Origin: Candidatus Latescibacterota bacterium
Lineage (GTDB): Bacteria; Latescibacterota; CBDEFO01
Length of the DNA: 64,000 nucleotides
Reading direction: 5' to 3'
NCBI GenBank assembly: GCA_965248755.1
Contig: OZ252149.1
Span: forward strand, 3,424,001 to 3,488,000
Shown: one piece after another, positions 34,174 to 55,058 of the stretch
How positions within the stretch are numbered: the first letter of the stretch is position 1
Layout of the letters: the number at the start of each line of letters is the position of its first letter
Made by a program: the position numbers and the translations under genes
The notes under the pieces: generated by a model
Told to the model about the DNA's origin: nothing
Databases searched by the model: none
Seen by the model: the letters and a program-made list of their open reading frames with translations, nothing else

Positions 34174-34677
34174 ATGAGCAAAGGAAACAAGATTTCCCTT
34201 TCCACTTTACAGTTTGGAGAGATTTCCTTCGATAAGGACATAATAATCCACTTCCCCTCGGGGATTGTAGGGTTTGAGGATATGAAAAGGCACATCATCA
34301 TAGACGCGGAGGACTGCAAGCCGTTCAAGTGGCTCCTTTCGGTGGATGATCCCGACGTGGGTTTTGCCATCATTGACGCTTCCTATCTGTACCCGAAGTA
34401 TCAGCTAAATCTCGCTCCAGAGGATGCGCAGGGATGGCTCAAGGACTCCAGAGTAGAGGACCTTGCCAGTTATCTTGTGGTAACTTTGAGAGAGAACATA
34501 GAAGATGCTACGGTTAATCTGAAAGCTCCGGTCATTATAGATGTAGAAAGAGGAGTGGGAGGTCAGATAATCTTGACATCGGAGGATTATCCCATAGACT
34601 ACCCTATATTCAGGGAGGAAAACGTAGTATACCAGGAGGGTGATATGTATGCTGGTTCTGACCAGGAAAATAGGTGA
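34174..34677 (+). CDS. fliW: Flagellar assembly factor FliW
   Basis: [25 protein letters not shown]. Confidence 0.95.
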
Positions 34678-34933
34678 GTCCATTATGATTGGCCATAACG
34701 TAAAGGTGATGGTCGTAAACTCTGAGGGTGGACAGGTGCGCTTGGGGATAGAGGCCCCTCCAGAAGTCGTTGTGCATCGTGAGGAGATATACAGAATGAT
34801 TCAAAAGGAAAATGTGATGGCATCAGCCCCTAAGACAGACGAGATAAAAAAGATCGCTCAGGCTCTAAGAGATAAAAAGGGCTCAACCCAAGACCGGGAG
34901 AACAGCTATGTCAAGAAAGTCGTCAGAAAATAG
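34649..34933 (+). CDS. csrA: Carbon storage regulator CsrA
   Basis: [15 protein letters not shown]...VRLGIEAP...HREEIY; AGGAGG SD. Confidence 0.97.
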
Positions 34934-35475
34934 AGATCAATCCAAAGACCAAATAGGTGGTGTGACCACTCCTGATAGATTCGAGATTCTCAAGGAAGAA
35001 GTTGAAAAGGCCCCCCAATCGCTTGAGACAAACAGGAACCTCGCCAACTACTTGATGGAAAGCAGCAGAGAGGACGAGGCAGAGCAGTACCTGGAGGTGA
35101 TGCTAAAGTTGGACCCCGGTTGTGCCGAGGCGCACAACGCCCTCGGGATGATATGCTCCAACAGGGACCAGGTAGAGAGTGCTGAACGTCATTTTATGAA
35201 GGCCTTAATGTTCGATTTCGGACTTACCGAAGCCCACTTCAATTTAGCGTCGTTCTATTACGGTCAAGGCAAGTACAAAGAGGCTCTTTCCTACTATAAA
35301 GAAGTTATCACAGCGGATCCTAACGACTACAGGACGTACTGCTTTATGGGAGAATGCGCCCTAAGGTGCAACATGGAAAGCGAGGCCGAAGCTTTCTTTT
35401 TGGAAGCTGTCATACCGCTCCCCTTGACAGAGCGACAAATATTTCGCAAATTGGGGTTTGAGAAGGGAGGTCAAG

Positions 35476-35787
35476 GTGTCGAGCCCCGAAGTGAAAGATG
35501 GTAAGCGCTGGACGGCGACCCGTAAGGGAGAGATTGTGTTGGCTCTTTTGAGAGGAGCAGATCTATCTGAGGTGTGTCGTAAGAATGGAATTAGCCAGTC
35601 GCAGGCGTATGCTTGGCGTGATAGTTTCTTAGAAGGGGGCCAGGAGAGTCTGAAGTCTCGGCGTGGTCGCAAGGATCCGAAGGAGCGAGAGGTTAGCCGG
35701 TTGGAGCGCAAGGTAGGGCAGTTGACGCTCCAGTTGGAGATACTCGAAGAGGTAGCCCGTCTAAAAAAAACGAAGCGGTTGCCTTGA
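35476..35787 (+). CDS. IS3 transposase OrfA
   Basis: Translation identical to copy 1. Confidence 0.9.
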   Translation: MSSPEVKDGKRWTATRKGEIVLALLRGADLSEVCRKNGISQSQAYAWRDSFLEGGQESLKSRRGRKDPKEREVSRLERKVGQLTLQLEILEEVARLKKTKRLP

Positions 35788-36647
35788 GTGGGCGGTTTTT
35801 GGGTCGAGGCTATTCCCGCAAGGTGGTAGCTTTGGCTTTGGGTTTGCATCGTTCGACTCTGTATAGGTTTAGGGATAGAGGTGTCAGTTCTTCTGTTAAA
35901 GAGCCTGTGATAGATGAGGAGCTTGCTTTTCGTATTCGAGGGATACTGGACCAAGAAGAGGCATTTGGTCACAGGCGGGTTTGGGCGCATCTTCGTTTCA
36001 AGGAAGGGGAATGTGTCAACGTTAAGAAGGTTCATAGGATAATGAAGCTTAAGGGGTGGCAGTGTAAGCTGTGGAATCGTCCCGGGAGAAAGGGGCCACA
36101 GGTTGCCCAGAAGCGTTCTGTGGTGGATAGTCCCGACAGTTTGTGGTCGAGTGACTTGACAAAGATTTACTGTGGAAAAGATGGTTGGTGTCCTCTTATT
36201 GCGGTGGTGGACAACGGAAGCCGGGAGGTTCCTGGGTATCGTTTTAGTCGAAAAGGGAGGGCACTGGAGGCCACAGATGCCCTGGATCGGGCCGTGATCT
36301 CTCGATACACTTCCAAGGAGGCTGTCCCCCAGGGTCTCACTTTGCGCTCTGACAATGGTTCCATCTTTTTGGCTCGGGCCTATTTGGCCAGTACCGAATA
36401 TTGGGGAATTCGTCAGGAATACATACCAAGTGGTAAACCCGATTGGAACGGTGTTGTAGAGCGTTTTTTCAGGACCCTCAAGCAAGAGTGTGTTTGGCTT
36501 CACAAGTTTGAATCCTTTGAACAGGCTGAGAAGATCATATCTCAGTGGATCGATAATTACAACAAGAACAGGCTTCATTCATCCCTGGGATATAAGACCC
36601 CAAAAGAGTGGAGAAAACAATTTTATCTACTACCCCAGGTTGCTTAA
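35784..36647 (+). CDS. IS3 transposase OrfB
   Basis: Translation identical to copy 1. Confidence 0.95.
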   Translation: MSGRFLGRGYSRKVVALALGLHRSTLYRFRDRGVSSSVKEPVIDEELAFRIRGILDQEEAFGHRRVWAHLRFKEGECVNVKKVHRIMKLKGWQCKLWNRPGRKGPQVAQKRSVVDSPDSLWSSDLTKIYCGKDGWCPLIAVVDNGSREVPGYRFSRKGRALEATDALDRAVISRYTSKEAVPQGLTLRSDNGSIFLARAYLASTEYWGIRQEYIPSGKPDWNGVVERFFRTLKQECVWLHKFESFEQAEKIISQWIDNYNKNRLHSSLGYKTPKEWRKQFYLLPQVA

Positions 36648-39600
36648 TTGGTGTCGCTTTCCTGGGAAGCAGTACACTGTTAGCCTCAAGCCCGACTTTG
36701 TGGAAGCCGCTCTGTTACTATCGGACATGCTTTTGGAGCAAAAGCGATTGCCTGAGGTGCAGGAACGGCTTGCGGAACTTGTGAAGTTCTATCCTGATAT
36801 GGCGGAAGTTCAGCTTGCGCTCGGACTCGTTCTGAAAGAACAAGAAAAGTATGAAGAGGCTCTTAGTCACTTGAGAGAGGCCGTGCTTTGTGACTCAGAC
36901 GATCCCGACGTCTACAACGCTTTGGGAGAATGCTGTGTCAAGATCCAGGCCTACGACCAAGCTGAAAGCTTCTACGCCCAGGCTTTAAGGCTCCGTCCCG
37001 ATTTCGACCTTGCCATGGCTAACCTGGGAGAACTCTACTATGACCGGAGCGACTTCCATAGTGCCCTTTTGGTCTTTGAACAGCTCAAGATACTTTCTCC
37101 AGACGACCCCGAGATCGCCGCTTTGATCAAAGAATGTCTCTCAAAAAAAGGAGCCGAAATACTCATAGTGCAGGAAGAGGGCATAGGAAATATGGTCATG
37201 TTGACCCCTGCCATCAGAGCCATTAAGGAGAACCTCCCCAACTGCAACGTAACCGTGCTCGGAAAATATCCATCCTTGGAGGTAATCGAGGGCTGGGAGC
37301 TCGTTGACAAAACCATTACAGAGTTTGACGACAGAGTATATGACTACGTCTTTTTCACTATATGGTCTCTCAATACCAAGAGACAGTTCGGGGATGCCAT
37401 AACTTCAAAGTGCCGAAACATAGTGGAAATAAACTACAATGACCCTTCCACTCACGAGGTGGGCTATCACCTTGAGATATCCAGGCATTTAGGCTATCAC
37501 ACAGAGAATCCCTCCACATACTGTGCCATCGAGGATGTGGAGTTGGAGTTGCCCGACGATGCCACCGTCGTGGGGATATGCGACACCACGCGTTTGGGAC
37601 CCTGGGAGAGAAAGAGATGGCCCTATTATAAAGACCTCGCCCGGATGTTAGTGGACGACGGATACGCGGTCGTACTGATCGGTGGTCCTCAAGAAGCTGA
37701 GAGATTCAAGAAAGAAGAGTGGCCCGAAGAAGTCATAAACTGCCTCGGTAAATATAGGGTGGCCCAGACTGCGGGAATACTAAACAAATGCGACATCGTA
37801 ATAGCCAATGACAGCGGCCCTGCCCATATAGCCGCTGCCCTCGGCACGAAGACCTATACGCTCTTTGGACCCACCAGAGTGACCAAGAACCAGCCGATAG
37901 GTCCTCAGGTTCAGGTTCTAACCAAAAATCTCCCGTGCAGCCCCTGTCAGTACACGACCGGATGGGACGAATGTTCCGACTGGCAGTGCATGAGTCAAAT
38001 CAGCCCGCAAGAGGTCATGCAAGCCATCAAGGATGGAAGATCAGCTTTTCCTTCTGAGGTCTTTGATTCCAGCGCTGCAGTGGATACTCCATTTGAAGAA
38101 GCTGCACCTGAGCATATGTCTGTTGCGGACCCTGAACCGGTCGAAAGTAGACAGCAAACAGTAAACAGTAGACAGGGCACTTCCTCCCCTCCCTCCGGCG
38201 GATTGTCCCTTATCTCCAAGGACTACTCCGACTGCCGCGTAGTCCGGGAGGATAACATCACGTACGTAGAGAGAGACGGTTTTCGAGAGCAGCTTAAGGT
38301 TCACCTTGTCGGAGCCAGATGGGCTAACTTCCCCTGGGGAATGGAAAATGAGGTCTTCCGCTCGTTTGAGAAGATGGGATGCGAGGTCTTCGACACCGAC
38401 TACAGGCTCCAGGCGGATAACCTGGACGAGCTGTTCTTAAGAGAGGCGCATCTTACGCTTGTATTCAAAGGCAGTGGCATCCAGCCTGAACTTATAGAGG
38501 AACTTAAATGTCCCTCAATACTATGGTATCAGGACGATATATTCACCACCGGCCATGGCAGGAGGGATATCGCCTACTCGGGTTCTGCATACGACAGGGT
38601 CTATACCTTTGACAAGAGCGCGATAGAGGAATACAAAAATTACGGCATTAAAGATGTAAGGTGGCTTCCGCTTTGTATGAGTCCGGCTGTGCATAAGAAG
38701 ATGTACATACCGAAAGTCCACGACGTCTCCTTCGTCGGGAATATATATCCCAACAGGGAAAGATTGATATCGCGGCTCAGGGAGAGGTTCGACGTCTTCG
38801 TAACGAAGGCCTATATGGACGAGATGGTCAAGGTTTTCAACGAATCCAAGATCGTCCTGAACCTCGGCATAGGCAACACTGGAATACAGTCCAGAGTCTT
38901 TGAAGCCCTCGGCTGTGGAAGTTTCCTTTTGACCAACGAAATACAGCAAGACGCCAGGCTCTTCAAGGATAGAAAACACCTTGTCTATTTCAACGAGTCG
39001 GACATTGAAGAAGCCGTAGCGTACTACCTAGAAAACGAAGAGGAGCGTGAGCAGATAGCGCTGCATGGTTACCTGGAGGCGAACCGCGCCCATACCTACG
39101 ACCACAGGGTCGAGGCTGTCTTGAAAGACCTCTTCCCACTGATTCCAGACAGAAGCAGTCGGGGCCAAGATAGCCAAGAGGATCGGGACAAGAAAAGCTC
39201 GATTCCAATCATTAGCCCCTCAGAGGAGGAATTGACTCCTAAGAGGCGTCTCTTAGTCTTCTGGCACGGAATCGGAGACAACATAATGGCCACTCCTTCC
39301 CTGCGCGCCCTCAAGGAAAAATATCCCGATGATTCCCTGGGTTTTATGTATCTAAAGAGGATAGACAAAGACGGTCTATTCGACGAGAATCCCTACATAG
39401 ACGCCACGTATACGTGCAGCGACGCTTGGGACGATTACGCCGATTACGAAACCGGAGTCAAGGCTATTTTGGAGGAGGCCAGGCAAGTCGCAGAGAAAGA
39501 GGGCTACGACGAGATTTTGCCTGTGACCCTTCGCTCTTGCTCTCTGGAAAATCACAGGATTTATCGTATAGCGCACGAACTCGGTGTTGAGCTATCGAAC

Positions 39601-42177
39601 TGGGACACGGAATTTCCGATCCCCCAAGAGGAAAAAGAGAGAGCTGACGCCATCTTCAAGGCCAGGGGTATAGACGACGACGACTTCGTGGTTGCCATCC
39701 ACAGGAGAGGTGCAAATATCCATAAATATTGGGATGTGGAAGAGGCTGCAAGGTTCGTGGATTACATGGTGGAAAACTACAACGCCAAGTTTATCGCCTT
39801 CGAGACTCACACCGATCTGGACAGGGAGGAAGCGCGGCAGTTGGAAGGCGAAAATATCTTCAGCACATATCGCCTGCCCGATATGAATCTGAAGCTCTCG
39901 GCGGCTTTCATTGACAAATGTAACCTCTTTGTGGGCATAGACTCAGGTCCCATGTGGATGGCCACTACCACAAAGACCCCGATAATTTCCCTTTTCACTA
40001 TGACGTGGATGCACCAGAGTGCGCCTATGAGTAAGGACAGCTACATAGTCTGCTCCGACAGATCCAAAGAGATGGCGACGGAGAAGTTCAAGGCGGAACA
40101 TAAAGACAGGATCGTCTATTCCTCAAAAGATGGCACGAGTATAGACACAGAGGCAGTCATCAGTTGCCTGGAGAAACTTGAAATTGAGGGTCTCATCAAC
40201 TTACCAGATGGACACTCTGGTGGCAATGGAAGTGTTCATGACTCGATCTCCAAATACTCGGCAAATTCTACGGTTGATGCCGGCGGAGAAAGAGTTCCAC
40301 CTGCACCGCCCGCACCACCTGTAGTGGGATTGCCACCTTCCAGCGATACTTTTCGGGAGCCCCAGCCAACAAAGGTGGATGTCGTCGAGCCATCTGTAGG
40401 CAAGCCAAGTCTCGTCGGGGTGGGACTGCCCCTCGTTGGAGAAAAGAATGAGTCACCTGCCAATTTTAGTCTCCTTGAGAAAGCCCAAAAGGGAGAGGCG
40501 ATAGTCCTTCCGGACAAGTACTGCAGGCCCGGAAGCTATTGGGCGGCTTTCCTTACGCTTTACTGCACCGCCAAGTGCACGTACTGCATCCAGCATCTGG
40601 AGTTTGACAGCTTTCAGAAGGCCCAGAAGGTCAAGATGCTCTCAGGCGAGCAGTGGGTGACGATCCTCAACAGCATAAAGCACGACGACGGACGTCCCCT
40701 TGCGGTGATAGGCGGCGAGGCTTCGATGCACCCTGATTTCCTTTACATCCTCAATAATCTGGAAGGATACTTCGTCACAGTCACGACCAATGTCTACTCC
40801 AAGGTCTTCGAGGACATAGACAGATTCGCAGAGGAGCTAAAGCCCAAGTCCACCATCAGGTTCAACACCTCCTTCCATCCAGACTACATCTCCATAGACG
40901 ATTTCTGTCATAGGGTCAAAAAGCTGCGTGAAAATAGGCTCTGGGTCGATCAGATAGCCATGGTAGATCACCCCGAAAGCAACTTTGCAGAATATCAAAA
41001 AGAGTTTCAAGACCGCGGAGTTCCCCTAAGGCCTCAGACGTTCTTGGGGAACTGGAAGGGCGTGCTTTATCCGAATCCCAACTCTAACATAACCAACGAT
41101 TTAAAGGAGACCGGTATTTCAGATTACAGACGATTGGAGGACGGATTTAGCAACAGGAAGAGATCGTCCGTTTTGTGTGCGACGGACCGGTTCTTAATCT
41201 CTCCGGATGGAGCGGTTTTCAACTGCCACTACAGGCTCTACAGCCGCCACGACCCTGTCGGAAGTGTCTTAGAAGGATTCGATCTCCCTTCAGACTACTT
41301 CATCTGCCATGACTACGGATTCTGTAATCTCTGCGACTTTTCACGCGTCAATTTCAAGCCCCTTGATCCATCAGCTAAGATCGACCCCGTCATTTATGTC
41401 GATGGTGAGGGCGGATGTCGCCTGTGCGGAGGAAAGTATTTGACGGTGGCCTACAAAGATCTCCTAATGTGCAACGACTGCGGTGTCCTCTTCAAGTCTG
41501 ATCTGCCTGACAAGGACGAACTTATGGAGAGCCTCTCCGGATTCCTCCTTTCTGCCTGCTTTGACGGGTCTAAAGGAAGCAGAAGGTTCAAAGAGGCCGA
41601 CTATCAGTTAGACCTGATTGAGAAATACACAAAGAAGGGCTACCTATTCGATATCGGATGCGCCTCAGGTTTCTTCATAAAGCGCGCCTTCGACAGAGGC
41701 TGGTCAACAAACGGAACGCTCTGTGGGAACGATATTTCAAAGGCGTCCGTCCAGTGGGCAAAGGAGAATTTCGAGATAGATATAGGGCACGGTTATTTCG
41801 AGGATATTGACCTTCCGCTCAAGCACTTCAACACTGTTGTCCTCTGGCACAGCTTAGAACATACCCTGAATCCGCTGAAGACTCTTCAAAAGTGCAACAG
41901 GATACTTGCAGACGGAGGCATAATCCTCATCAGCGTCCCGGAGAAGGCCGTAAAGGACGTGGCCCAGCACTACGAGCCAATGCACCTTTATGAGTTTAAC
42001 AGAGACAGCCTGGACAATCTGCTTTGTCGTACGGGCTTTGATAGGCTGGAACTTATCGAAAGGACCGACACCCACATTCCACAGATAGATGTGGTTTACA
42101 GGAAAGTAAAAAGTACAGAAGAAGTCACTATACAACATAGCGATAGATAAACTCACTTAACAAAGGAGTTTACTACA

Positions 42178-42873
42178 TTGAACACTCAAGAATGGGTCAA
42201 AAGACAGTCCAATTTTCACTTGGAAAGGCTCGACTGGCCCGAGTTCAAGGCGTCAGTAGACCACAACCAGAGACGCTTTGAGGTTCTCTGCAAATATGCC
42301 AAGCCAAGAATGAGAATGCTTGATGCCGGCTGTCATGCCGGGTGTGTAGCAGAGGAAATGCACAGAAGAGGGTTGGACGTTACGGCTGTTGACCTTCCTG
42401 ACGTTGTAGAGAGCATAGACAAGAAAGAAGGGATAACTTATTATGGTATAGACCTAAACGGCGGAAATGGTATTACCAGAAGGTTAGATGGGAAGGTGAT
42501 AGATCAGGGCGGATGGCCTTGCCGTGCAGTCGGCGTTGGAGGAGTAAGCAACGTCATTGTTCCAGAGCGGTACAATCTCATCTTTTCAGGAGAGACTATA
42601 GAGCACCTTTACAATGATTTCGACTTTTTGAAACGGTGCTATAATGGGCTTGTGGAAGGAGGGCTTTTGATTCTTAGCGCTCCCTTTTATTATCCCGATC
42701 AAGACTGGTCGATAAACGGCGGGATGCACATAAGGGTCTATCCAGCAAGGATGCTCGACGGACTGGTACAGCTTGCTGGATTTGAGATAATTGAGACAGA
42801 TAATGTACAGATACTTGACAATGCTGGGATTAAAAGGAATACCGGAAGAATAGTTGTGGGCAGGAAAGAGTAA
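42178..42873 (+). CDS. Class I SAM-dependent methyltransferase
   Basis: MLDAGCHAG, SGETIEHL, GGLLILSAP; AAGGAG SD, TTG start. Confidence 0.88.
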   Translation: MNTQEWVKRQSNFHLERLDWPEFKASVDHNQRRFEVLCKYAKPRMRMLDAGCHAGCVAEEMHRRGLDVTAVDLPDVVESIDKKEGITYYGIDLNGGNGITRRLDGKVIDQGGWPCRAVGVGGVSNVIVPERYNLIFSGETIEHLYNDFDFLKRCYNGLVEGGLLILSAPFYYPDQDWSINGGMHIRVYPARMLDGLVQLAGFEIIETDNVQILDNAGIKRNTGRIVVGRKE

Positions 42874-43127
42874 CTCTTTCTGCCTGGATGCTTTGCTTCA
42901 ACGCGCAGGATTTGAGAGACTGTAACTGATGCAGCTATTTCGCAAGCAGCGGTAGTCTAGAGGAAAAAGTCGCCAGGGCAGTACTCCTCCTCCCTGTCTA
43001 CTGTAAATCATAAGCGAGAAAAGATGGTCAATTCAAGAATATCCGACTTGCAAAGATATGAATCACTACATTGTATATCAATAACTTCCCCGCACTGGAG
43101 AGTAAGGGTACCTATCCATCCTGATAA

Positions 43128-43211
43128 GTTGTGGTGGACACTGGCTTATCTGATCAGACAGTCGAGATAGCCGAATCTTTCGGCGCAAGTGTCTACCATC
43201 CTTGGGAGTAG
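43128..43211 (+). pseudogene. Small GT2 glycosyltransferase fragment
   Basis: VVVDTGLSDQTVEIAESFGASVYHPWE* parallels IVVDTGSTDLTAQIAESHRAKVYHHSW of the gene at 52638. Confidence 0.7.
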
Positions 43212-43347
43212 GGGAAGGAACATACCTTATAGAGTCTGGCTTATAGATCTTTTCCCCACTATATTGGAGTTGGGACAAATCGACTTTGATAAAAAATGTT
43301 ATAAGAGGTAAAAACCTATTAGCTTGTAATAAGAGGAGAAGAAGCCA

Positions 43348-44100
43348 GTGGCCGAAAAGATTGAGAGAAATGGGACACATAGCGTAGGCACAAAAATGGA
43401 GCCGTTTGACTTTATGCAGGACGAAATTGCGATAACAATTGACACGTATGATGGGATTGCCGAGGATTACTGTCGGCATACCAGAAAAGAAGCCAAGCAG
43501 GAGCCAAGAGTGCGGGAAGCCACAAGAGAGTATATGGATTACTTCCTAGCGCTAAATTCCAAATCAGATCCCATAATTGCTGATATTGGTTGTGGTGATG
43601 GCAGGGATTCAAAATATATGATTGACAAAGGATATCGAGTATTATCAATAGATGCGTCGATAGGAATGTTACGACAGGCAAAAGGGAAGGTAGAGGATTC
43701 TTTGATGATGGATATACGGGATATTGGGTTAGCTGATATGTCTGTTGATGGTGTTTGGCTCTGCGGGGCTTTGTGGCATCTTCCAAAAAAAGAGTTGCCC
43801 AAGGCAATATGAGAAATTAACAGGATATTGGCTCCTGATGGAGTGTTTTCGTGCAGTTTCAAATTGGGAACTGGTGAAGGTATGGAGGAAAATCCCTCAT
43901 CCTTTCTGGGAGCGCCGAGATACTATTCGTACTATGGTGTATTAGAAATTCTGGATATTATAAGAGAACATGGATTTAGGATTATTTTAACAAGTAGATA
44001 CGATACAAAAGTCTTTGGTCATACAAAATACCAGATATTTTCTCGAAAGGAATTGTCCAATGAACATTATAATCGTTTCCTGCGATTCCTTGCGCCCTGA
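43348..44100 (+). pseudogene. Class I methyltransferase with one in-frame TGA (43810-43812)
   Basis: IADIGCGDGRD...LPKAI*EINRILAPDGVF; both track ORFs lie in the same frame. Confidence 0.85.
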
Positions 44101-46101
44101 CTTTTTGGGTTGTTATGGACATCCAAGTGCCAAGACCCCTAACATAGACAGAATAGCATCTGAAGGGGTGCTCTTTGAGGAACCCCGGACACAGTATATG
44201 TGTACGGTTCACTCAATTATTGCGATGATGACAGGCTCAAATATTGAGGTGGATGACAAGAACACGCTCTTTGGCATTCTATCGGATAGGGGTTATAAGA
44301 CTTTAAATAGTTTTTATCACAAACCACAATGGGGACACTGCAAGTTGCATCACGCTGAGTTTTGTCAGGAGAGTATTAACGAGTGGATAGATGAAAACCA
44401 GCACGAGAACTTTTTGATGTTGCTCTGGTATCATCAGACACATAGCCCCTACGGTTCAGAGAATCATTGGGGTTCACGGGACTCTGTCAGGCCAACATAC
44501 TTTATTAACCCAATAAGCCGCGAATTTTTGAAGCATCAGCCCAGTATCCCCCCAGAGAGTTTGTGCCAAATGGATATGGAGCAGAAGGATCGAAGATTGT
44601 CCCAGCTTTTTAAGCAGGGCAATATGGAACCAATTGAGAAGGTGTATATAGAAGCGATTGAGGAGGTAGATCGGCAAATAGGGGAAATTGATCAGCATCT
44701 TAGAGACTTAAACCTTGACGAAAAGACTATATTTATCGTAACATCAGATCATGGCCAGGATTTTAATAACCCCGTTGCAAGAGAGGCAGGCCTGAATTTT
44801 CACTATAAAACGCGCTCTAAAGATGCCAGGCGGGTTGTATTGATAATGAGACAGAAGCATTATCAGCCTGCTGGCAAGAGAGTATCTACCGTTGTAAGGC
44901 TTGTGGATTTATTTCCAACGGTGATAGAGATGTTAAATATTGATGTACCAGAAGCTGTTGGCCCTCTCTCAATTGTTGGAAGGAGCCTGATGCCTGTTAT
45001 TAGAGGAAGAGATACCGAAGATCGCCCAGAGCCATGCAGTATAATAGGGACGTTTGAAAACGCCGATACGGAGACTCGGCTAAGAAATCTGGCGGATGAT
45101 TTCACCGTTGTAAAGCTCGGAGACTTGTACATAAGGGAGAATAGACTCGATGAGGCAATAAAACATTACGAAGAAGCTTTAGAGATAAATCCTGATAATT
45201 CCGATGCCTATAACGGTTGGGAATACGCCCTCCTTCAAAGCCGTAATCTGCTATCTGTCCTTGGAAAGATCTATCTTAATAAGAAACGCTACAACGACGC
45301 TATAAGTACCTACCAAGAACTCCTTGAGCAGAGAGAAATAATCGAAAAAGATCCAAATTTCAAGGCCTACGTTATGGACACGAAGTCAAGGAACAGCGCT
45401 ATCAGGGCAACCATTGGTGAGTGCTACCGACTTTTGGGAGACTACGAAAAGGCTATAGATTATTTGAAAAACGCTATTGCCCAGGATGACCAGCATCTCG
45501 ACCTCTACAAAAGCCTTGCTTTCTGTTATATTGAGACGGGGGAATTACCTGACGCCCGGCGTACGCTTGATAGAGTAGCTGCAGTTGGAATAGCTGACGA
45601 TTTTGTCTTTGTAAAGCTTGGAGACTTGTACATAAGGGAGAACAGACTCGATGAGGCAATAAAACAGTACGAAGAAGCTTTAGAGATAAATCCTGATAAT
45701 TCCAATGCCTATAATGGCTGGGGATACATCCTCCTTATGAAAGGCCAAGAGGAGGATGCAGATTTGAAATTTTCAAAGGCACTTGAGCTTAATCCCAACC
45801 ACGAACGGGCTCATTTCAATCTTATGAAGCTGAAGTTCGCCCAGGGGGCACACCAGGAGACACTGGAACAGATTGATAAGTTAGTGTCGTTGGAACCCCA
45901 AAGCGCTGAAATATACAGAGAATCTGGAAACATCTGCGTCAGGCTTGGAAAGTACGAGAAAGCTATTGAACTGTACGAAGAATGCATCCGACAAGATCCG
46001 ACAGACAAAGTTACTATGTCCAACGTTGCCTCCTGCCATACCGCTCCCCTTGACAGAGCGACAAATATTTCGCAAATTGGGGTTTGAGAAGGGAGGTCAA
46101 G

Positions 46102-46413
46102 GTGTCGAGCCCCGAAGTGAAAGATGGTAAGCGCTGGACGGCGACCCGTAAGGGAGAGATTGTGTTGGCTCTTTTGAGAGGAGCAGATCTATCTGAGGTG
46201 TGTCGTAAGAATGGAATTAGCCAGTCGCAGGCGTATGCTTGGCGTGATAGTTTCTTAGAAGGGGGCCAGGAGAGTCTGAAGTCTCGGCGTGGTCGCAAGG
46301 ATCCGAAGGAGCGAGAGGTTAGCCGGTTGGAGCGCAAGGTAGGGCAGTTGACGCTCCAGTTGGAGATACTCGAAGAGGTAGCCCGTCTAAAAAAAACGAA
46401 GCGGTTGCCTTGA
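46102..46413 (+). CDS. IS3 transposase OrfA
   Basis: Translation identical to copy 1. Confidence 0.9.
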   Translation: MSSPEVKDGKRWTATRKGEIVLALLRGADLSEVCRKNGISQSQAYAWRDSFLEGGQESLKSRRGRKDPKEREVSRLERKVGQLTLQLEILEEVARLKKTKRLP

Positions 46414-47273
46414 GTGGGCGGTTTTTGGGTCGAGGCTATTCCCGCAAGGTGGTAGCTTTGGCTTTGGGTTTGCATCGTTCGACTCTGTATAGGTTTAGGG
46501 ATAGAGGTGTCAGTTCTTCTGTTAAAGAGCCTGTGATAGATGAGGAGCTTGCTTTTCGTATTCGAGGGATACTGGACCAAGAAGAGGCATTTGGTCACAG
46601 GCGGGTTTGGGCGCATCTTCGTTTCAAGGAAGGGGAATGTGTCAACGTTAAGAAGGTTCATAGGATAATGAAGCTTAAGGGGTGGCAGTGTAAGCTGTGG
46701 AATCGTCCCGGGAGAAAGGGGCCACAGGTTGCCCAGAAGCGTTCTGTGGTGGATAGTCCCGACAGTTTGTGGTCGAGTGACTTGACAAAGATTTACTGTG
46801 GAAAAGATGGTTGGTGTCCTCTTATTGCGGTGGTGGACAACGGAAGCCGGGAGGTTCCTGGGTATCGTTTTAGTCGAAAAGGGAGGGCACTGGAGGCCAC
46901 AGATGCCCTGGATCGGGCCGTGATCTCTCGATACACTTCCAAGGAGGCTGTCCCCCAGGGTCTCACTTTGCGCTCTGACAATGGTTCCATCTTTTTGGCT
47001 CGGGCCTATTTGGCCAGTACCGAATATTGGGGAATTCGTCAGGAATACATACCAAGTGGTAAACCCGATTGGAACGGTGTTGTAGAGCGTTTTTTCAGGA
47101 CCCTCAAGCAAGAGTGTGTTTGGCTTCACAAGTTTGAATCCTTTGAACAGGCTGAGAAGATCATATCTCAGTGGATCGATAATTACAACAAGAACAGGCT
47201 TCATTCATCCCTGGGATATAAGACCCCAAAAGAGTGGAGAAAACAATTTTATCTACTACCCCAGGTTGCTTAA
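46410..47273 (+). CDS. IS3 transposase OrfB
   Basis: Translation identical to copy 1. Confidence 0.95.
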   Translation: MSGRFLGRGYSRKVVALALGLHRSTLYRFRDRGVSSSVKEPVIDEELAFRIRGILDQEEAFGHRRVWAHLRFKEGECVNVKKVHRIMKLKGWQCKLWNRPGRKGPQVAQKRSVVDSPDSLWSSDLTKIYCGKDGWCPLIAVVDNGSREVPGYRFSRKGRALEATDALDRAVISRYTSKEAVPQGLTLRSDNGSIFLARAYLASTEYWGIRQEYIPSGKPDWNGVVERFFRTLKQECVWLHKFESFEQAEKIISQWIDNYNKNRLHSSLGYKTPKEWRKQFYLLPQVA

Positions 47274-47544
47274 TTGGTGTCGCTTTCCTGGGAAGCAGTA
47301 CACTGCTACGCGAAACTCAGGGATTTAGAATCCGCCCAGATGGCGTATCAGAACGCTCTTAGCATTGACCCTGATTACAGCGAGGCATCGTGCAACCTCA
47401 AAGTGATTGAAAACGCCATAGCTGAACTCGGTGAAGAGAAGATGGCAGATGCCGCCTCGTAGTATATAGATCGACAGGATAGTTTACGAAAACTCATAAC
47501 AGGAAGAACAAAAAGACTGTGCCCTTATCAGGAAAGTATCTCGG

Positions 47545-49500
47545 ATGATACATAGCATAAGAAATTTAGGATTCTTTGAAGATCATAAGATAGAACTTAA
47601 TTCTGTGGTTGATCTCGGGGCTCATCACGGTGAAGTAGCGATATACTTTGCCCAAAGTAATCCTTCGGCAAGGATTCTGGCTGTTGAAGGATCGAGTCAA
47701 AGTTTTGCTATCCTCAAGGAGAATGTTGAAAGACAGAACCTCTTAAGTAACAACATCATTTTAGTAAATGAAGCCATATCGGATAGAGCAGGTGTTGTCG
47801 ATATGACATTAGATAGAGGAGGCGAAAATACGATTGTTTTAGATGAAAAAAAGCGATGGCGTTATCACCCATGGTTGAAGCCCTTCCGAAAAGAAAATTT
47901 GAGGACCGAAAAGGTCAAAAGCGATACACTTTCAAATCTGTTGAAACGATATAATTTTGATTATGTTGATTTCATGAAGGTTGATATTGAGGGAGTTGAA
48001 CCCTTGCTCTATGAAAGTTTAGAGAAGGATTCTTCAATCATCAAATCAATCTTTATTGAACTCGGCTCTTTAAAGACCCTTGATGGTGATCATAGATTAA
48101 TGGGACTACTGTTTAGGAAAGATTTTAAGTGTTTTGATCTATGGGGGACAGAGTTAAAAAGTTTAGATGTAGCTAAGGAGTATTTGTACAAAGGATGGAT
48201 AAATAAGGAATCGATCCCAAATCTTTGGTTTCTCCAGGGAAAACACAGCAAAAAGAGCTATCACAGCAGCTTTAAGAGCCTCGAAAGGCAGATAGAAGAG
48301 GATCCTAACAACACCTTAGCCTGGTACAACCTGAATCAAATCTTGCGCGACAAAGGAGAATTTGACAAAGCTGTCGAAAATGGAATTCGCGCTCTTTCTT
48401 TCAAACCCTATGAGGAGGACCGGAAAACCTATCTTATGCTCCTCTTCAACACAGCCTACTGCTGCCTTATGAGTGGACACTTGGACGAAGGCGAGAGATT
48501 GTGCCAAGAAGGTTTAACGTACAACCCTCAAAGTCTCAATCTGCTATCTTTCCTTTCTGTCCTTGGAGGTATCTATTTTAATAAAAAACGCTACAACGAC
48601 GCTATAAGTACCTACCAAGAATTCCTTAAGCAGAGAGAAATAATCGAAAAAGATCCAAATTTCAAGGCCTACGTTATGGATACGAGGTCAAGGAAGAGCG
48701 CTATCAGGGCAACCATTGGTGAGTGCTACCGACTTTTGGGAGACTACCAGAAGGCTATAGATTATCTGAAGAACGCTATTACCCAGGACGACCAGCATCT
48801 CGACCTCTACAAAAATCTTGCTCTCTGTTATATTCTGATGGGCGAATTGCCTGGTGCCCGGTGTACCCTTGAAAGGGCGGTTGAAGTTGGAATAGCCGAC
48901 GATCGCACCTTTGTAAAGCTCGGAGACTTGTACATAAGGGAGAAGAGACTCGATGAGGCAATAAAACAGTACGAAGAAGCTTTAGAGATAAATCCTGATA
49001 ATTCCGATGCCTATAACGGTAGGGGATACGCTCTCCTTATGAAAGGCCAAAAGGAGGATGCAGATTTGAAATTTTCAAAGGCTCTTGAGCTTAATCCCAA
49101 CCACGAACGCGCTTGCTTCAATTTTGTGAAGCTGAAGTTCTCCCAGGGGGCACACCAGGAGACACTGGAACAGATTGATAAGTTAGTGTCGTTGGAACCC
49201 CAAAGCGCTGAAATATACAGAGAAGCTGGAAACATCTGCGTCCAGCTTGGAAAGTACGAGAAAGCTATTGATCTGTACGAAGAATGTATCATACAAGATC
49301 CTACAGACAAAGTTACTATGTCCAACGTTGCCTCCTGCTACGCGAAACTTGGGCATTTAGAATCCGCCCAGATGGCGTATCAGACTGTTCTCAGCATTGA
49401 TCCTAACTACGCCGAGGCAACCCGCAGCCTCAAGGTAGTTGAAGACTTGATAACCAAATACGGAATTGGCGAACAGAGTATGGTTGATGCCGCCTTGTAG
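47545..49500 (+). CDS. FkbM-family methyltransferase plus TPR tail (intact)
   Basis: VVDLGAHHG, LAVEG, FMKVDIEGVE, followed by multiple TPRs. Confidence 0.92.
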   Translation: MIHSIRNLGFFEDHKIELNSVVDLGAHHGEVAIYFAQSNPSARILAVEGSSQSFAILKENVERQNLLSNNIILVNEAISDRAGVVDMTLDRGGENTIVLDEKKRWRYHPWLKPFRKENLRTEKVKSDTLSNLLKRYNFDYVDFMKVDIEGVEPLLYESLEKDSSIIKSIFIELGSLKTLDGDHRLMGLLFRKDFKCFDLWGTELKSLDVAKEYLYKGWINKESIPNLWFLQGKHSKKSYHSSFKSLERQIEEDPNNTLAWYNLNQILRDKGEFDKAVENGIRALSFKPYEEDRKTYLMLLFNTAYCCLMSGHLDEGERLCQEGLTYNPQSLNLLSFLSVLGGIYFNKKRYNDAISTYQEFLKQREIIEKDPNFKAYVMDTRSRKSAIRATIGECYRLLGDYQKAIDYLKNAITQDDQHLDLYKNLALCYILMGELPGARCTLERAVEVGIADDRTFVKLGDLYIREKRLDEAIKQYEEALEINPDNSDAYNGRGYALLMKGQKEDADLKFSKALELNPNHERACFNFVKLKFSQGAHQETLEQIDKLVSLEPQSAEIYREAGNICVQLGKYEKAIDLYEECIIQDPTDKVTMSNVASCYAKLGHLESAQMAYQTVLSIDPNYAEATRSLKVVEDLITKYGIGEQSMVDAAL

Positions 49501-50938
49501 CCAGTTGAGCTATCGAAATTGGGTTCGTTCAACATGTGGGGTTTAATTCTAGAGATTGATGCCGATGCATGCCGTTGTAATTGTTGTTGGGAAAAACCAT
49601 GGATAGGGGTAAGACATGCAAGAGTGTCACAGTATTGAGAATTTCTTTGCAAAACACAAAATAGAACTCAGGTCAGTTGTTGATATTGGAGCCGAGATCG
49701 GCAAAATTACTCTTTACTGTGCAGAAAAAAACCCCAAAGCGAGAATTTTGGCTATTGAAGGATCAAGTCGAAATTTTTCTGTTCTTCAGAAGAATATTCA
49801 GAGATCTGGCTTTAACAATATTATCTTAATAAATAAGCTTGTTTCAGATAGAGTAGACACGATTGACGTGTCTACTGGCAGAGGATCAGAAAATACCATT
49901 ATTTTAGATAAAAGAAATTTGAGGATAAGATATGAACCCCAAACAGAGAAAGTTCAATCAGATACACTATCAAATTTGTTGAGACAACATAATTTTGATT
50001 ATGTTGATTTCATGAAGATCGATATTGAGGGAGGTGAACCATTACTTTATGAAAGCTTAAAAAGGTATGCATCGGATATAAAATCCCTATTTATCGAATT
50101 TGGCTATATGAATACAAAAGATAGCTATTTTTCACTATTAGAACTATTATTCGAAAAAGGATTTTTGTGTTTTAAGGACTTTGGTGAAGAATTAACAACC
50201 CTTAAAGAAGCCCAAAAATATTTTAGTGAAAAATGGGATATTAGAGAAATTACCAACCTTTGGTTCTTACAGAAAAAGCACGCTAATATTACTTCTCAAA
50301 ATCAACGAACCCTATCAGATTGCATGATCGTCAAAGACGAAGAAGAGTTCATGTCTAGGCGCATTGAAAGCTTCGAAAAGCAGATAGAAGAAAATCCCAA
50401 CAACACGTTTGCATGGTTAAACTTCAATCAAATCTTGCGCGACAAGGGAGAATTCAACAGAGCTGTCGAAAATGGAAAGCACGCTCTTTCTCTTGAATCC
50501 TACGAAGAGGACCCAGGAACTTATCTCATGTTGCTCGACGATACAGTTTACTGCTGTCTTATGAGTGGACGCTTGGACGAAGGCGAAAAACTGTGCCAAG
50601 AGGGTTTAAAGCATAATCGTAAAAACCTCGATTTGCTATGCACCCTTGCAAATATCTATTTTAGGAAAAAACGCTACGATGACGCTATAAATGCCTATCA
50701 AGAATTCCTCAAGCAGAGAGAAATAGCGGAAAAAAGTCCAAACGTTTACTCCCATATTGTGATCACGTGGTCATTCCAGAGTATTGTCAGGAACAACATC
50801 GCTCAGTGCTACCGGCTTTTGGGAGACTACGAAAAGGCTATAGATTATCTGAAAAACGCTATTGCCCAGGACGACCAGCCTCTCGACCTCTACAAGAGCC
50901 TCGCTTTCTTGTACTGCTTCCCAGGAAAGCGACACCAA

Positions 50939-51802
50939 TTAAGCAACCTGGGGTAGTAGATAAAATTGTTTTCTCCACTCTTTTGGGGTCTTATATCCCA
51001 GGGATGAATGAAGCCTGTTCTTGTTGTAATTATCGATCCACTGAGATATGATCTTCTCAGCCTGTTCAAAGGATTCAAACTTGTGAAGCCAAACACACTC
51101 TTGCTTGAGGGTCCTGAAAAAACGCTCTACAACACCGTTCCAATCGGGTTTACCACTTGGTATGTATTCCTGACGAATTCCCCAATATTCGGTACTGGCC
51201 AAATAGGCCCGAGCCAAAAAGATGGAACCATTGTCAGAGCGCAAAGTGAGACCCTGGGGGACAGCCTCCTTGGAAGTGTATCGAGAGATCACGGCCCGAT
51301 CCAGGGCATCTGTGGCCTCCAGTGCCCTCCCTTTTCGACTAAAACGATACCCAGGAACCTCCCGGCTTCCGTTGTCCACCACCGCAATAAGAGGACACCA
51401 ACCATCTTTTCCACAGTAAATCTTTGTCAAGTCACTCGACCACAAACTGTCGGGACTATCCACCACAGAACGCTTCTGGGCAACCTGTGGCCCCTTTCTC
51501 CCGGGACGATTCCACAGCTTACACTGCCACCCCTTAAGCTTCATTATCCTATGAACCTTCTTAACGTTGACACATTCCCCTTCCTTGAAACGAAGATGCG
51601 CCCAAACCCGCCTGTGACCAAATGCCTCTTCTTGGTCCAGTATCCCTCGAATACGAAAAGCAAGCTCCTCATCTATCACAGGCTCTTTAACAGAAGAACT
51701 GACACCTCTATCCCTAAACCTATACAGAGTCGAACGATGCAAACCCAAAGCCAAAGCTACCACCTTGCGGGAATAGCCTCGACCCAAAAACCGCCCACTC
51801 AA
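50939..51802 (-). CDS. IS3 transposase OrfB
   Basis: Translation identical to copy 1. Confidence 0.95.
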   Translation of the reverse strand: MSGRFLGRGYSRKVVALALGLHRSTLYRFRDRGVSSSVKEPVIDEELAFRIRGILDQEEAFGHRRVWAHLRFKEGECVNVKKVHRIMKLKGWQCKLWNRPGRKGPQVAQKRSVVDSPDSLWSSDLTKIYCGKDGWCPLIAVVDNGSREVPGYRFSRKGRALEATDALDRAVISRYTSKEAVPQGLTLRSDNGSIFLARAYLASTEYWGIRQEYIPSGKPDWNGVVERFFRTLKQECVWLHKFESFEQAEKIISQWIDNYNKNRLHSSLGYKTPKEWRKQFYLLPQVA

Positions 51803-52110
51803 GGCAACCGCTTCGTTTTTTTTAGACGGGCTACCTCTTCGAGTATCTCCAACTGGAGCGTCAACTGCCCTACCTTGCGCTCCAACCGGCTAACCTCTCG
51901 CTCCTTCGGATCCTTGCGACCACGCCGAGACTTCAGACTCTCCTGGCCCCCTTCTAAGAAACTATCACGCCAAGCATACGCCTGCGACTGGCTAATTCCA
52001 TTCTTACGACACACCTCAGATAGATCTGCTCCTCTCAAAAGAGCCAACACAATCTCTCCCTTACGGGTCGCCGTCCAGCGCTTACCATCTTTCACTTCGG
52101 GGCTCGACAC
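51799..52110 (-). CDS. IS3 transposase OrfA
   Basis: Translation identical to copy 1. Confidence 0.9.
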   Translation of the reverse strand: MSSPEVKDGKRWTATRKGEIVLALLRGADLSEVCRKNGISQSQAYAWRDSFLEGGQESLKSRRGRKDPKEREVSRLERKVGQLTLQLEILEEVARLKKTKRLP

Positions 52111-52561
52111 CTTGACCTCCCTTCTCAAACCCCAATTTGCGAAATATTTGTCGCTCTGTCAAGGGGAGCGGTATGTTCTGTTATATGGAGTCAGGGAAAT
52201 TACCTAACGCCGAGCGTGTGCTTGAAAGCGCTGTTGAAGCTGGAATAGCCGACGATCCCACCTTTGTAATGGCTGAAGTTTACAAAGATGCTGGAGATAT
52301 CTGCGTCAAACTCGAAAGGTACGAGAAAGCTATTGATTTGTACGAAGGATGCATCAGACGGGATCCTACAGACAAAGTCACTTTGTCAAACATGGCCTCC
52401 TGCTACGCAAAACTTGGGCATTTAGAATCGGCGAAGATGGCGTATCAGACTGCTCTCAGCATTGATCCTAACTACACCGAGGCAGCCCGGAACCTCAGGG
52501 TTATAGACAACGCCATAGCTAAACTCGGCGAAGAGAAGATGGCAGATGCCACATCATAAAT

Positions 52562-52633
52562 AAGTAAACAGTAGGTAGTAAGCAGGGTATTCTCCCCTCC
52601 CTGTATGCTGTCTACCTATGTTTGCTGGCTACC
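52562..52633. repeat. Heptamer-periodic inverted repeat element (clearest copy of the family)
   Basis: AGTAAAC-AGTAGGT-AGTAAGC-AGGG...CTCCCCTCCCTG...GTCTACC-TATGTTTGCT; relatives at ~13031, 23008, 26510, 38146, 42941. Confidence 0.6.
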
Positions 52634-53432
52634 AAAAATGAGACCCACAATTTCCCTTTGCATGATCGTCAAAGATGAGGAGGAACACCTCGGAGCCTGC
52701 CTGGAGAGCGTCCTGGGCGTTGTCGATGAGATGATAGTAGTGGATACTGGCTCGACCGACCTCACTGCCCAGATAGCCGAAAGCCATAGAGCTAAAGTCT
52801 ACCATCATTCCTGGAAGGACAACTTTTCGGAAGCCAGAAATTATTCCATCGGCTGTGCATCCTCAGATTGGATACTTCAACTGGACGCCGACGAAGAGTT
52901 TGAAAAAGACGATCTTCCCATCCTGAAGAACGCAGTTGAATCCGACCTGTACAACGCTGTTTTTTTGGCCATATACAACGACCTCCCCCAAGGCAGATCC
53001 AAATTCTACTATCCCAGATTGTACAGAAGGGGCAAGGCCCACTACGAAGGCATAGTACACAACCAACTCATCTATGAGGGCAAAGGCCTACACAGTGAAA
53101 TAAGGATATATCATAAAGGGTATAACCTGGGCCATAAAAAGACAATGCAAAAAACTGAAAGGAGCAGAAAGCTTCTTGAAAAGCAGCTTCAAGACGATCC
53201 TGATAACATCTTTGCGTGGCACAATCTCATAAGGATATACAGGAACCGAAAAGAGTTTGAGCTTGTCCTCCGATACGGGGAAGATGTTCTTGACAGGATT
53301 CCCTACGAAAAAGACCCTAACTTCTACCTTATGATACTCTACGACGTCGCCTTTTCTTACCTTCACCTTTCCAACTACGAGAAAGCGGAAAAGTTTTGTC
53401 TTTCTGCCCTTGATAAGAAGGACAACTATATA

Positions 53433-55058
53433 CCCCCATTCGCCATATTAGACCCGAAAAATGGTTGTCAAAGTCGCCAGAACATGTTATATTACAATAA
53501 ATAAGACTCATAAATGGCGGATAAATATTGATCATCCAGAGGGTGAAAGAATGAAAGTAGGTTTTGATGGAGGAATAAAGCTTGAATTTCATGGTGCAAA
53601 GGTGACATCAAACGGTGGACTTCTTGCGTATCGTGACCTTGATTACGCACTGGGATTATTTGATTCGGTATCAGCGGTTTTTACCGATAAACGCACAGGC
53701 CGTAATATCCAACATGATATATCTACTCTCCTGCGTCAATCGATATACAGCCGTCTTGCAGGATATGAAGATGTAAATGACGCCGAGCGATTATCCGTTG
53801 ATCCCGTCATGCGAGCGATTACCGGAAAGAAGGACAAAGGCAGGCAAGCTGCCAGCTCCAACACGATAGGACGTTTTGAAACTGATATACTGACTCAGCA
53901 TGACAATCTCAGAAACTTGTCAGATATCAATGGCAAGTGGGTTCAAAAAGCGATGAGTAAAACACAGCATCAACGAATCATTCTGGACATGGACAGTTCG
54001 GAGAGTCCGGTACATGGCCAGCAGGAAGGATCAGCTTACAACGGTCATTTCGGATGTACCTGTTTTCATCCAGTGTTCTGCTTCAATCAGTTCGGGGATT
54101 GTGAAGGAGTCCTACTTCGCTCTGGTAATGTTCACAGTGCTGATCGTTGGAAGGAAGTTCTGGAACCGATCGTCAAGAGATACGAGAGCAAGAAGAATAG
54201 GAAATACTTTCGAGGCGATGCTGCATTCGCAAAGCCTGAGATTTATGATTATCTGGAGGGAAACGGCTATTTGTATGCCATTCGGCTTCCCGCAAATGAG
54301 ATACTCTATGAAAAGATACGATACCTGCTGACTCGGCCAGTTGGACGACCGCCGAGGAAACCGATTGTATCGTTATATGAATTTCAATATAAAGCGGCCA
54401 GTTGGGATCAATCGAGGCGAGTGGTCGCCAAGGTTGAATGGCACCAAGGGGAGTTATTCCCAAGAGTGGGATTTATCGTGACCAACATGAGCGCCAAGCC
54501 AGAAGGCGTGGTACACTTCTACAATGGCCGTGGCAGAGCTGAGCAGTGGATTAAGGAGGGCAAGTATGCTCTGAACTGGACCCGACTCTCATGCAAGCGT
54601 TTCGTCTCCAATCAGGTGAGGCTCTGGCTGTTTGTTCTGGCTTACAACTTGGGCAACTTCCTGCGACGTTTTGTTCTTCCGAAGAAAATCAAACACTGGT
54701 CACTACGCAGCCTCCTCGTGAAATTTATCAAAATCGGAGCGAAGATTGTCAGACACAGCGGATATATTACGTTTCAAATGGCTGAGGTTGGGATAGACAA
54801 GAGGTTATTTGCCGAAATATTATCCCGGATTGAACGATTGCGATGTTATTCTGTTTAAACTGCCACATTTTTTTGTGAGTCGATGGAGAGGTGTCTCTAA
54901 TTGGAGGATTTAAACACAAAGAAAGTGATAATTCAGAGGAAAATACTATTTTAATTGAAAAAAGTACTTGTTGAAAAATGTAAAAGTGGTAATATTAATT
55001 CAGAAACAAGAATGTATCGAAATATAATCCCTCATGAATGTGATATGGGGAATGTCGG
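53433..55058 (+). mobile_element. IS1380-family insertion sequence (1626 bp)
   Basis: TIRs CCCCCATTCGCCATAT / ATATGGGGAATGTCGG (13/16), CC...GG ends, 5-bp TSD ATATA. Confidence 0.93.
53461..54858 (+). CDS. IS1380-family DDE transposase
   Basis: GYEDVND, ILDMDSS, RGDAAF, YNGRGRAEQWIKEGK; start may be 53551. Confidence 0.95.
   Translation: MVVKVARTCYITINKTHKWRINIDHPEGERMKVGFDGGIKLEFHGAKVTSNGGLLAYRDLDYALGLFDSVSAVFTDKRTGRNIQHDISTLLRQSIYSRLAGYEDVNDAERLSVDPVMRAITGKKDKGRQAASSNTIGRFETDILTQHDNLRNLSDINGKWVQKAMSKTQHQRIILDMDSSESPVHGQQEGSAYNGHFGCTCFHPVFCFNQFGDCEGVLLRSGNVHSADRWKEVLEPIVKRYESKKNRKYFRGDAAFAKPEIYDYLEGNGYLYAIRLPANEILYEKIRYLLTRPVGRPPRKPIVSLYEFQYKAASWDQSRRVVAKVEWHQGELFPRVGFIVTNMSAKPEGVVHFYNGRGRAEQWIKEGKYALNWTRLSCKRFVSNQVRLWLFVLAYNLGNFLRRFVLPKKIKHWSLRSLLVKFIKIGAKIVRHSGYITFQMAEVGIDKRLFAEILSRIERLRCYSV

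Follow-up and report, generated by a model that had tools for sequence, protein, structure and literature searches.

The window analysed here is a 64,000-nucleotide stretch (positions 3,424,001 to 3,488,000 of contig OZ252149.1) of a Candidatus Latescibacterota genome (G000) and is part of a single 4.54-Mb contig that is 98% complete. At the end of a flagellar operon it carries a giant gene, now interrupted by an insertion sequence (IS); when the IS and one copy of its target duplication were excised in a script, the gene read as one frame of 5973 nt, encoding 1990 residues with no internal stop, as the original prediction had held. Its product joins, in this order, a tetratricopeptide repeat (TPR) block, a first GT9 glycosyltransferase domain (GT9a), a CgeB-like glycosyltransferase (GT), a second GT9 domain (GT9b), a radical SAM domain, a pair of CxxC motifs and a methyltransferase. 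We consider it likely that the intact gene extends and tailors an O-linked glycan on flagellin, or on another exported flagellar protein, before export, with a cytoplasmic chain primed by neighbouring GT2-TPR enzymes or by the CgeB-like domain. This reading draws on the architecture, the operon position, the intact homologues, the folds and the active-site patterns, from which we infer the individual steps.

Modular architecture and flagellar context

Pfam searches of the open reading frame (ORF) on the 3′ side of the IS recovered TPRs, two GT9 stretches (154.8 bits), the CgeB-type domain PF13524 (89 bits), PF12996 and Methyltransf_23 (60 bits), whereas Radical_SAM (PF04055) scored 26.4 bits, just below its cut-off of 29.5. 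The domain limits agreed with those first proposed to within ~20 nt, the radical SAM motif CTAKCTYC lay where it had been placed, and the class I methyltransferase was indeed preceded by CxxC-x14-CxxC. No transmembrane segment was found in the giant protein, and a structure model of the three-GT region (predicted local distance difference test (pLDDT) 84.9, predicted template modelling score (pTM) 0.45, 36 rows) showed no confident packing between domains. The disordered linker behind GT9a contains, within the coding sequence, a short heptamer repeat (AGTARAC) with 56 tandem occurrences genome-wide and very deep coverage in the sequencing runs.

A search of long proteins with the radical SAM region yielded 8 intact homologues of 1450-2043 residues, and a search with GT9a-CgeB yielded 30 long homologues besides the window's own. 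GT9a is present in all 30 of the latter, CgeB in 27, GT9b in 19, the radical SAM domain in 14 and the CxxC-methyltransferase in 6; four have the catalytic order of the window, and other rear modules include GT8, GT1/4, GT2, a second CgeB, sulfotransferase, phosphodiesterase and further methyltransferases. The proposed single-chain assembly line was therefore upheld as one multi-enzyme chain but not as a fixed one, since only TPR-GT9a(-CgeB) is constant and what follows is shuffled. Behind one and the same GT9a, both CgeB and GT9b come in two divergent clades, consistent with module exchange. Depositors' labels, given for some of the assembled genomes, assign the homologues to KSB1, Calditrichota, Deferribacteres, Deltaproteobacteria, Ca. 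Kuenenia, Actinobacteria and Ca. Latescibacteria. Of 168 genomes of the phylum, 4 carry GT9a, and each of these has a true fliC (kin are not independent); the flagellin/FlgL family was matched in 73 of the 168. No account of the giant architecture or of an Asn-type GT9 was found in a literature search from which subscription journals were mostly absent and supplements left out, in keeping with the original failure to recognise the architecture.

The window order is flgF-G-A-H-I-J, an IS, flgN-K-L, fliW, csrA, the giant gene, two methyltransferase genes, a sulfatase-TPR gene, two FkbM-TPR genes and a GT2-TPR gene, and the giant ATG lies inside csrA, as had been noted. Neighbouring genes, here and in relatives, were identified by BLAST against a reference set of ours, supplemented for selected ORFs with Pfam or PHROGs, which is not exhaustive. 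In three genomes of one genus (G013, G023 and G018, with L033 apparently from the organism of G018), flg genes and fliW are followed by a separate ~356-residue TPR gene and then the giant gene, although the G018 contig stops within the TPR gene. Locus L035 encodes an intact 1459-residue TPR-GT9a-CgeB-GT9b-radical SAM protein in the order flgAHIJNKL-fliW-csrA-TPR-giant-methyltransferase-two GT2-TPR genes-fliC-fliS-fliD. In L031 a TPR-GT9a-CgeB-GT8 form lies between sugar-pathway genes (DegT, epimerase, WbqC and formyltransferase) and fliC. Among the bacteria with readable context, flg-fliW-csrA or fliC operons thus surround the gene in four lineages, and for this reason we regard flagellin glycan extension as the best reading. 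The flagellin middles are 24-29% Ser+Thr. No match to a Maf/FlmG-type Pfam domain or to a nonulosonic-acid pathway was found in the giant protein or the neighbours scanned, and a complex prediction for the separate TPR protein and the flagellin of L035 scored 0.01, which is not evidence either way.

Several other arrangements were seen near flagellar genes. A different 921-residue GT-CgeB-methyltransferase fusion follows flgL immediately in G010 (L047:7149-9911), and directly upstream of fliC-fliS-fliD in G002 (L100) are aminotransferase-like, epimerase-like and RfaE-like nucleotidyltransferase genes, a methyltransferase and two GT2-TPR genes. Between the giant and GT2-TPR genes of G013 lie two related genes (L048:1787-3722), which we take to be glycoside phosphorylase-like. 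Sulfatase, FkbM and GT2 heads sit on related C-terminal TPR tails both in the window (44015-55822) and in L028-L029, and the syntenic place in G001 has a tandem array of about six GT2-TPR genes and three of FkbM type.

Phage-like contigs also carry related genes: L039, L040, L041 and L042 each have a GT9a-CgeB or GT9a-like gene, together with portal and terminase genes (L041), a deoxynucleoside monophosphate kinase (L039 and L041) or a tail protein (L042), and L041 additionally has a methyltransferase and a GT1. That phages carry the GT9-CgeB core is a new point, and these genes possibly serve virion glycosylation. With the three-GT alignment as query, a viral scan returned 32 loci, all distant matches (22-39% identity) and mostly to CgeB.

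Active sites of the catalytic domains

GT9a (PF01075) has a GT-B fold of the WaaC/WaaF type, with Z-scores of 29.3 to 3tov (root-mean-square deviation 2.5, 290 residues aligned), 28.0 to WaaF, 25.2 to WaaC and 20.7 to TibC. HepI uses as catalytic base D13, a residue said to occur in every heptosyltransferase, and the D13A replacement caused a 4688-fold loss of activity (PMC5713226); in TibC, a GT9 fold able to heptosylate proteins, the base is Asp110 (PMC4358343). We defined the GT9a clade as sequences scoring >150 bits on a profile built from clade members (47 above, 70 below). At the D13 position, within the motif [DE][EQ]G[IL]GN, Asn occurs in 46 of the 47 clade sequences, the remaining one being a gap in a truncated extract, whereas the 70 non-clade GT9s have Asp in 60, gaps in 7, Asn in 2 and Ser in 1. 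The equivalents of donor-site K192 and D261 are kept in 47 of 47. The first GT9 domain accordingly defines a clade in which Asn replaces the heptosyltransferase catalytic Asp, which is a new point. The three glycosyltransferases of the original prediction are present as domains, but with GT9a lacking this Asp throughout its clade their count as enzymes is uncertain. A four-Cys motif in GT9a was considered as a marker of the TibC iron finger and rejected, because nearly all outgroup GT9s carry four Cys too.

GT9b retains the catalytic Asp in WHGIGD, and its DSG motif reads DSGPMW, Trp replacing in its clade the His of DSGxxH, which we take to be H266. NCBIfam equivalog cut-offs were missed for lipopolysaccharide (LPS) heptosyltransferases I, II and III (78/185, 106/135 and 109/170 bits) and for BAHT (TibC/AAH, TIGR04414; 26/200 bits). 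G000 has, in a Wzc polysaccharide locus, a GT9b paralogue that is 80% identical to the window domain and follows a partial GT2 in one fusion; it groups with the window domain (87/69 support) inside the giant clade, which suggests that the GT9b acceptor is a glycan rather than a protein. In that locus (L005:9301-11904; G000:C1:4009300-4011900) the fusion is followed by a separate CxxC methyltransferase, and carbamoyltransferase, FkbH, phosphoenolpyruvate mutase and hddA/gmhB heptose genes belong to the locus as well. ADP-heptose adenylyltransferase was detected in all four carriers tested; the HldD epimerase was not found in any of the four at E 1e-40, a result too weak to build on. The CgeB-like domain modelled as a GT4-like GT-B fold with PF13524 and PF12996 above cut-off, and a PDB sequence search with it returned nothing significant.

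At a threshold of E 0.001, 584 relatives of the radical SAM domain were found. Conserved in an alignment of 95 rows are CxxxCxxC, GGE, one Asn, one His and five C-terminal Cys, the five Cys in 94-100% of rows. The model of the domain (pLDDT 96.7) comprises a partial TIM barrel, which together with CxxxCxxC and GGE marks the superfamily despite the subthreshold Pfam score, and a Cys-rich C-terminal cluster domain. Comparison with SPASM/twitch enzymes gave Z 10-16 at identities of 11-20% (SkfB 15.6, anSME 13.8, BtrN 12.2, SpeY 10.6, BlsE 12.0; also DesII, 13.7). BtrN, SpeY, BlsE and DesII act on sugar or cyclitol substrates. No NCBIfam family matches the window's domain, and the nearest Atlas clusters are unnamed, with many phage proteins among them. 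Long relatives are fusions with GT9, GT2, GT1, sulfotransferase, methyltransferase, Gfo/Idh/MocA or other radical SAM domains, and the family also occurs stand-alone. The family is unnamed, probably of SPASM/twitch type and in many cases joined to glycan enzymes, which is also a new point, and its role is likely some form of sugar C-H chemistry. The genome contigs scanned with this domain gave one match, which was unrelated, and the viral scan gave zero. A stand-alone radical SAM protein upstream in L031 was rejected as a family member (probability 10%). Elsewhere (P0099, P0081, P0069) the same family is joined to a Gfo/Idh/MocA oxidoreductase or chained with several radical SAM or B12-binding domains. 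Trees of GT9a and of the radical SAM domain, made with FastTree only, were poorly resolved at depth, and so we drew no order of events from them.

Proposed pathway and competing explanations

In the pathway that we favour, a neighbouring GT2-TPR enzyme, or the CgeB-like domain, would attach the first sugar to Ser/Thr in the Ser/Thr-rich flagellin middle, and the TPR block would tether the chain to flagellin. The constant GT9a-CgeB pair would then build the core, with GT9a binding a donor like a nucleoside diphosphate (NDP)-heptose; an acidic side chain five residues before the Asn, or else the donor phosphate, would stand in for the usual Asp base. GT9b would transfer a further sugar onto the glycan acceptor, the radical SAM domain would oxidise, epimerise or deoxygenate a sugar carbon by hydrogen-atom abstraction, and the methyltransferase would cap the chain. 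Swaps of rear modules would change the glycan end, much like a serotype switch.

Parts of this scheme have counterparts. In Caulobacter, FlmG combines an N-terminal TPR that binds flagellins with a GT-B domain, as the giant does, but it has 596 residues and a single GT that transfers pseudaminic acid (PMC7591256). The type B flagellin glycan of C. difficile is built sequentially by GT1, GT2 and GT3 (CDR20291_0241-0243), whose genes lie beside fliC, with a methyltransferase domain of GT2 proposed to cap rhamnose; the window likewise has GT2-family neighbours, but the C. difficile enzymes are separate GT2-family proteins with only one extra domain and no GT9, CgeB or radical SAM (PMC5207246). 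WaaC/WaaF and the protein heptosyltransferases TibC/AAH share the GT9 fold and the donor-site Lys and Asp (PMC5713226, PMC4358343), but differ at the base position of GT9a, at the DSGxxH His of GT9b and in family scores. CgeB of Bacillus subtilis, proposed to glycosylate protein Thr, shares the PF13524 and PF12996 GT-B domain, but is described as a stand-alone spore-crust enzyme with an unsettled donor (PMC13577073). WbbB and K. pneumoniae O7 ORF6 are likewise single polypeptides that hold several GTs together with a terminating methyltransferase, but theirs is a lipid-linked polymer with a coiled-coil ruler and ATP-binding cassette export, with neither TPR docking block nor radical SAM (PMC11231755). 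The SPASM/twitch enzymes share barrel and cluster domain with the giant, but at low identity and with no family match on the giant's side.

Several observations weigh against a flagellin glycan. The context is known for a minority of the 30 long homologues. A flagellar structural gene shares the contig in only 3 of 13 metagenome loci; two others show the L031 gene order and do not reach flagellar genes, three are uninformative, four are phage-like, and L038 has non-flagellar genes upstream. In G002 a stop interrupts the gene, and its contig carries no flagellar genes. GT9a may be non-catalytic, given the activity loss of HepI D13A, a copy of GT9b is found in a polysaccharide locus, and the radical SAM domain is at most 20% identical to any solved enzyme, its top folds including peptide maturases as well as sugar enzymes. 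The flagellar link first proposed held for operons of four lineages, with the qualification that phages have these modules too and that GT9b recurs in a polysaccharide locus.

A more ambitious version of the flagellin reading, which we think rather doubtful, is that the giants are an undescribed, shuffled family of single-chain flagellin glycan synthases resembling nonribosomal peptide synthetases. A TPR-guided, Asp-less GT9 would start or extend a heptose-containing glycan on protein by a new mechanism, a tethered radical SAM enzyme of an unnamed family would rewrite a sugar carbon directly on the protein-bound glycan, and phages would have this GT9(Asn)-CgeB core too, perhaps for glycosylating their virions.

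Alternatively, the chain might build a non-flagellar surface glycan (lipo-oligosaccharide, capsule, S-layer or pilin), its flagellar-operon position being historical. Characterised GT9s are mostly LPS heptosyltransferases with WaaF among the close folds, the Wzc locus has heptose-pathway genes further along from the GT9b paralogue, multi-GT-methyltransferase chains are described in O-antigen synthesis (PMC11231755), and L038 fits such a role. However, the repeated flagellar context and the constant N-terminal TPR argue against it, four separate Asp-type GT9 genes of G000 besides the giant could serve LPS, the LPS equivalog cut-offs were missed and there is no membrane anchor; we judge it unlikely.

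Improbable as well, in our estimate, is a tethered pathway with a flagellar target and two transferases, in which GT9a acts as a pseudo-enzyme, holding the primed glycan or a nucleotide sugar, and the radical SAM domain and methyltransferase act on soluble NDP-sugars before transfer. The Asn of GT9a, methyltransferases found at many positions or as separate genes, stand-alone radical SAM proteins and the lack of confident packing would suit it. In contrast, the donor-site Lys and Asp are invariant, GT9a is the one invariant catalytic-fold module, and GT9a(Asn) proteins of 332-367 residues exist on their own, which fit an enzyme better than a scaffold.

The interrupted window copy and its relatives

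The genome is full of IS copies, but an assembly chimera or chance read-through, to which we give next to no credence, was ruled out by an exact 6.3-kb match in one short-read contig (8487 bp, one from each of runs X1 and X2 of the same sample; 36651-43000, 0 differences) and by four independent homologues with the same catalytic order among the 30. The giant gene is real, a single interrupted frame and no chimera (Table 1). The left short-read contig terminates inside the IS, and no IS-free junction was listed among the short-read contigs, which drop rare variants; runs X3 and X4 yielded short pieces only.

Table 1. Coordinates of the giant gene, its domains and adjacent features in the window
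Feature	Position	Strand	Remarks
csrA	34640..34933	+	terminal gene of flgFGAHIJ-NKL-fliW-csrA; 26-nt overlap with giant gene start
Giant gene 5′ part, aa 1-168, TPR repeats	34908..35410	+	ends in first CTGT target copy
IS3-family insertion sequence	35411..36676	+	orfA 35458-35787, orfB 35784-36647; second CTGT 36677-36680
TPR domain remainder, aa 168-325	36681..37152	+	whole TPR block orthologous to relatives' separate upstream TPR gene
GT9a	37153..38043	+	GT9 fold; Asn338 (37189-37191) at catalytic-Asp position; donor-site Lys, Asp retained; C-terminal 4-Cys motif
Disordered linker, pLDDT < 50	38044..38289	+	AGTARAC heptamer repeat near 38146-38175
CgeB-like GT-B domain	38290..39141	+	PF13524, PF12996; closest folds GT4-type enzymes
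GT9b	39241..40182	+	catalytic Asp1034 retained; DSGPMW replaces DSGxxH; 80% identical paralogue at G000:C1:4009723
Pro-rich linker	40195..40497	+	
Radical SAM domain	40510..41358	+	CxxxCxxC (CTAKCTYC) 40564-40587; GGE; five conserved SPASM/twitch-type Cys, aa 1667, 1683, 1710, 1716, 1719
CxxC-x14-CxxC (41416-41481) and class I methyltransferase	41416..42150	+	motif DIGCASG; stop 42148-42150
Two separate methyltransferase genes	42178..43812	+	homologue of the first follows giant gene in L030, L031, L035
Sulfatase-TPR, two FkbM methyltransferase-TPR, GT2-TPR	44015..55822	+	IS at 46037 in sulfatase-TPR; second FkbM IS-cut at 50910; GT2-TPR cut by IS1380

The element breaks the frame at codon 168, is 1266 bp long and is bordered on either side by CTGT, a 4-bp target duplication. 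An orfA helix-turn-helix, an orfB integrase core and the short duplication place it in the IS3 family; its left end is CA, which is atypical, the family having TG there. Genome-wide there are 69 near-full matches, 46 of them identical full copies. Several copies lack a target duplication and have a common right flank, which suggests composite moves or adjacent deletions.

Compared with the free-standing TPR genes that lie upstream in L025, L031 and L035, the window's 325-residue TPR block scored 134-156 bits; its scores against the short TPRs of the giants themselves were only 31-68 bits, and the TPR of P0005 has the same scoring pattern. On these scores the N-terminal TPR would most simply be a captured neighbouring gene, fused to the GT core. 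Because the IS falls in the TPR part, the 3′ ORF (1816-1886 residues) retains every catalytic domain; inspection of the sequence revealed no ribosome-binding site ahead of its first usable codon, and the window copy is probably inactive. Three further cluster genes and fliD are IS-cut in this genome, one of its three flagellins has a stop, and the 25-kb bin of the window is one of 3 among 181 that hold four IS copies. G001, of the same genus and 96% complete, has no unbroken flagellin among its three, and the queries used gave no match there to fliW, GT9a, CgeB or the radical SAM domain. Decay is general, and the genus appears to be losing motility; that the giant gene and the flagellins decay together speaks for the flagellar reading.

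The window copy is a broken relic, and its value lies in the intact relatives from several uncultured bacterial groups, which likely build an unusual sugar coat on the flagellum by a chemistry so far predicted from sequence. The family offers three testable targets, a GT9 clade that lacks a base thought universal in heptosyltransferases, an unassayed radical SAM family that is often fused to glycan enzymes, and compact multi-step glycosylation chains that could find use in glycoengineering. Known flagellin glycosylation involves separate one-domain enzymes in a few cultured species; the giant family suggests a different strategy in uncultured lineages, with entire glycan pathways combined in a single chain and diversified by module swaps.

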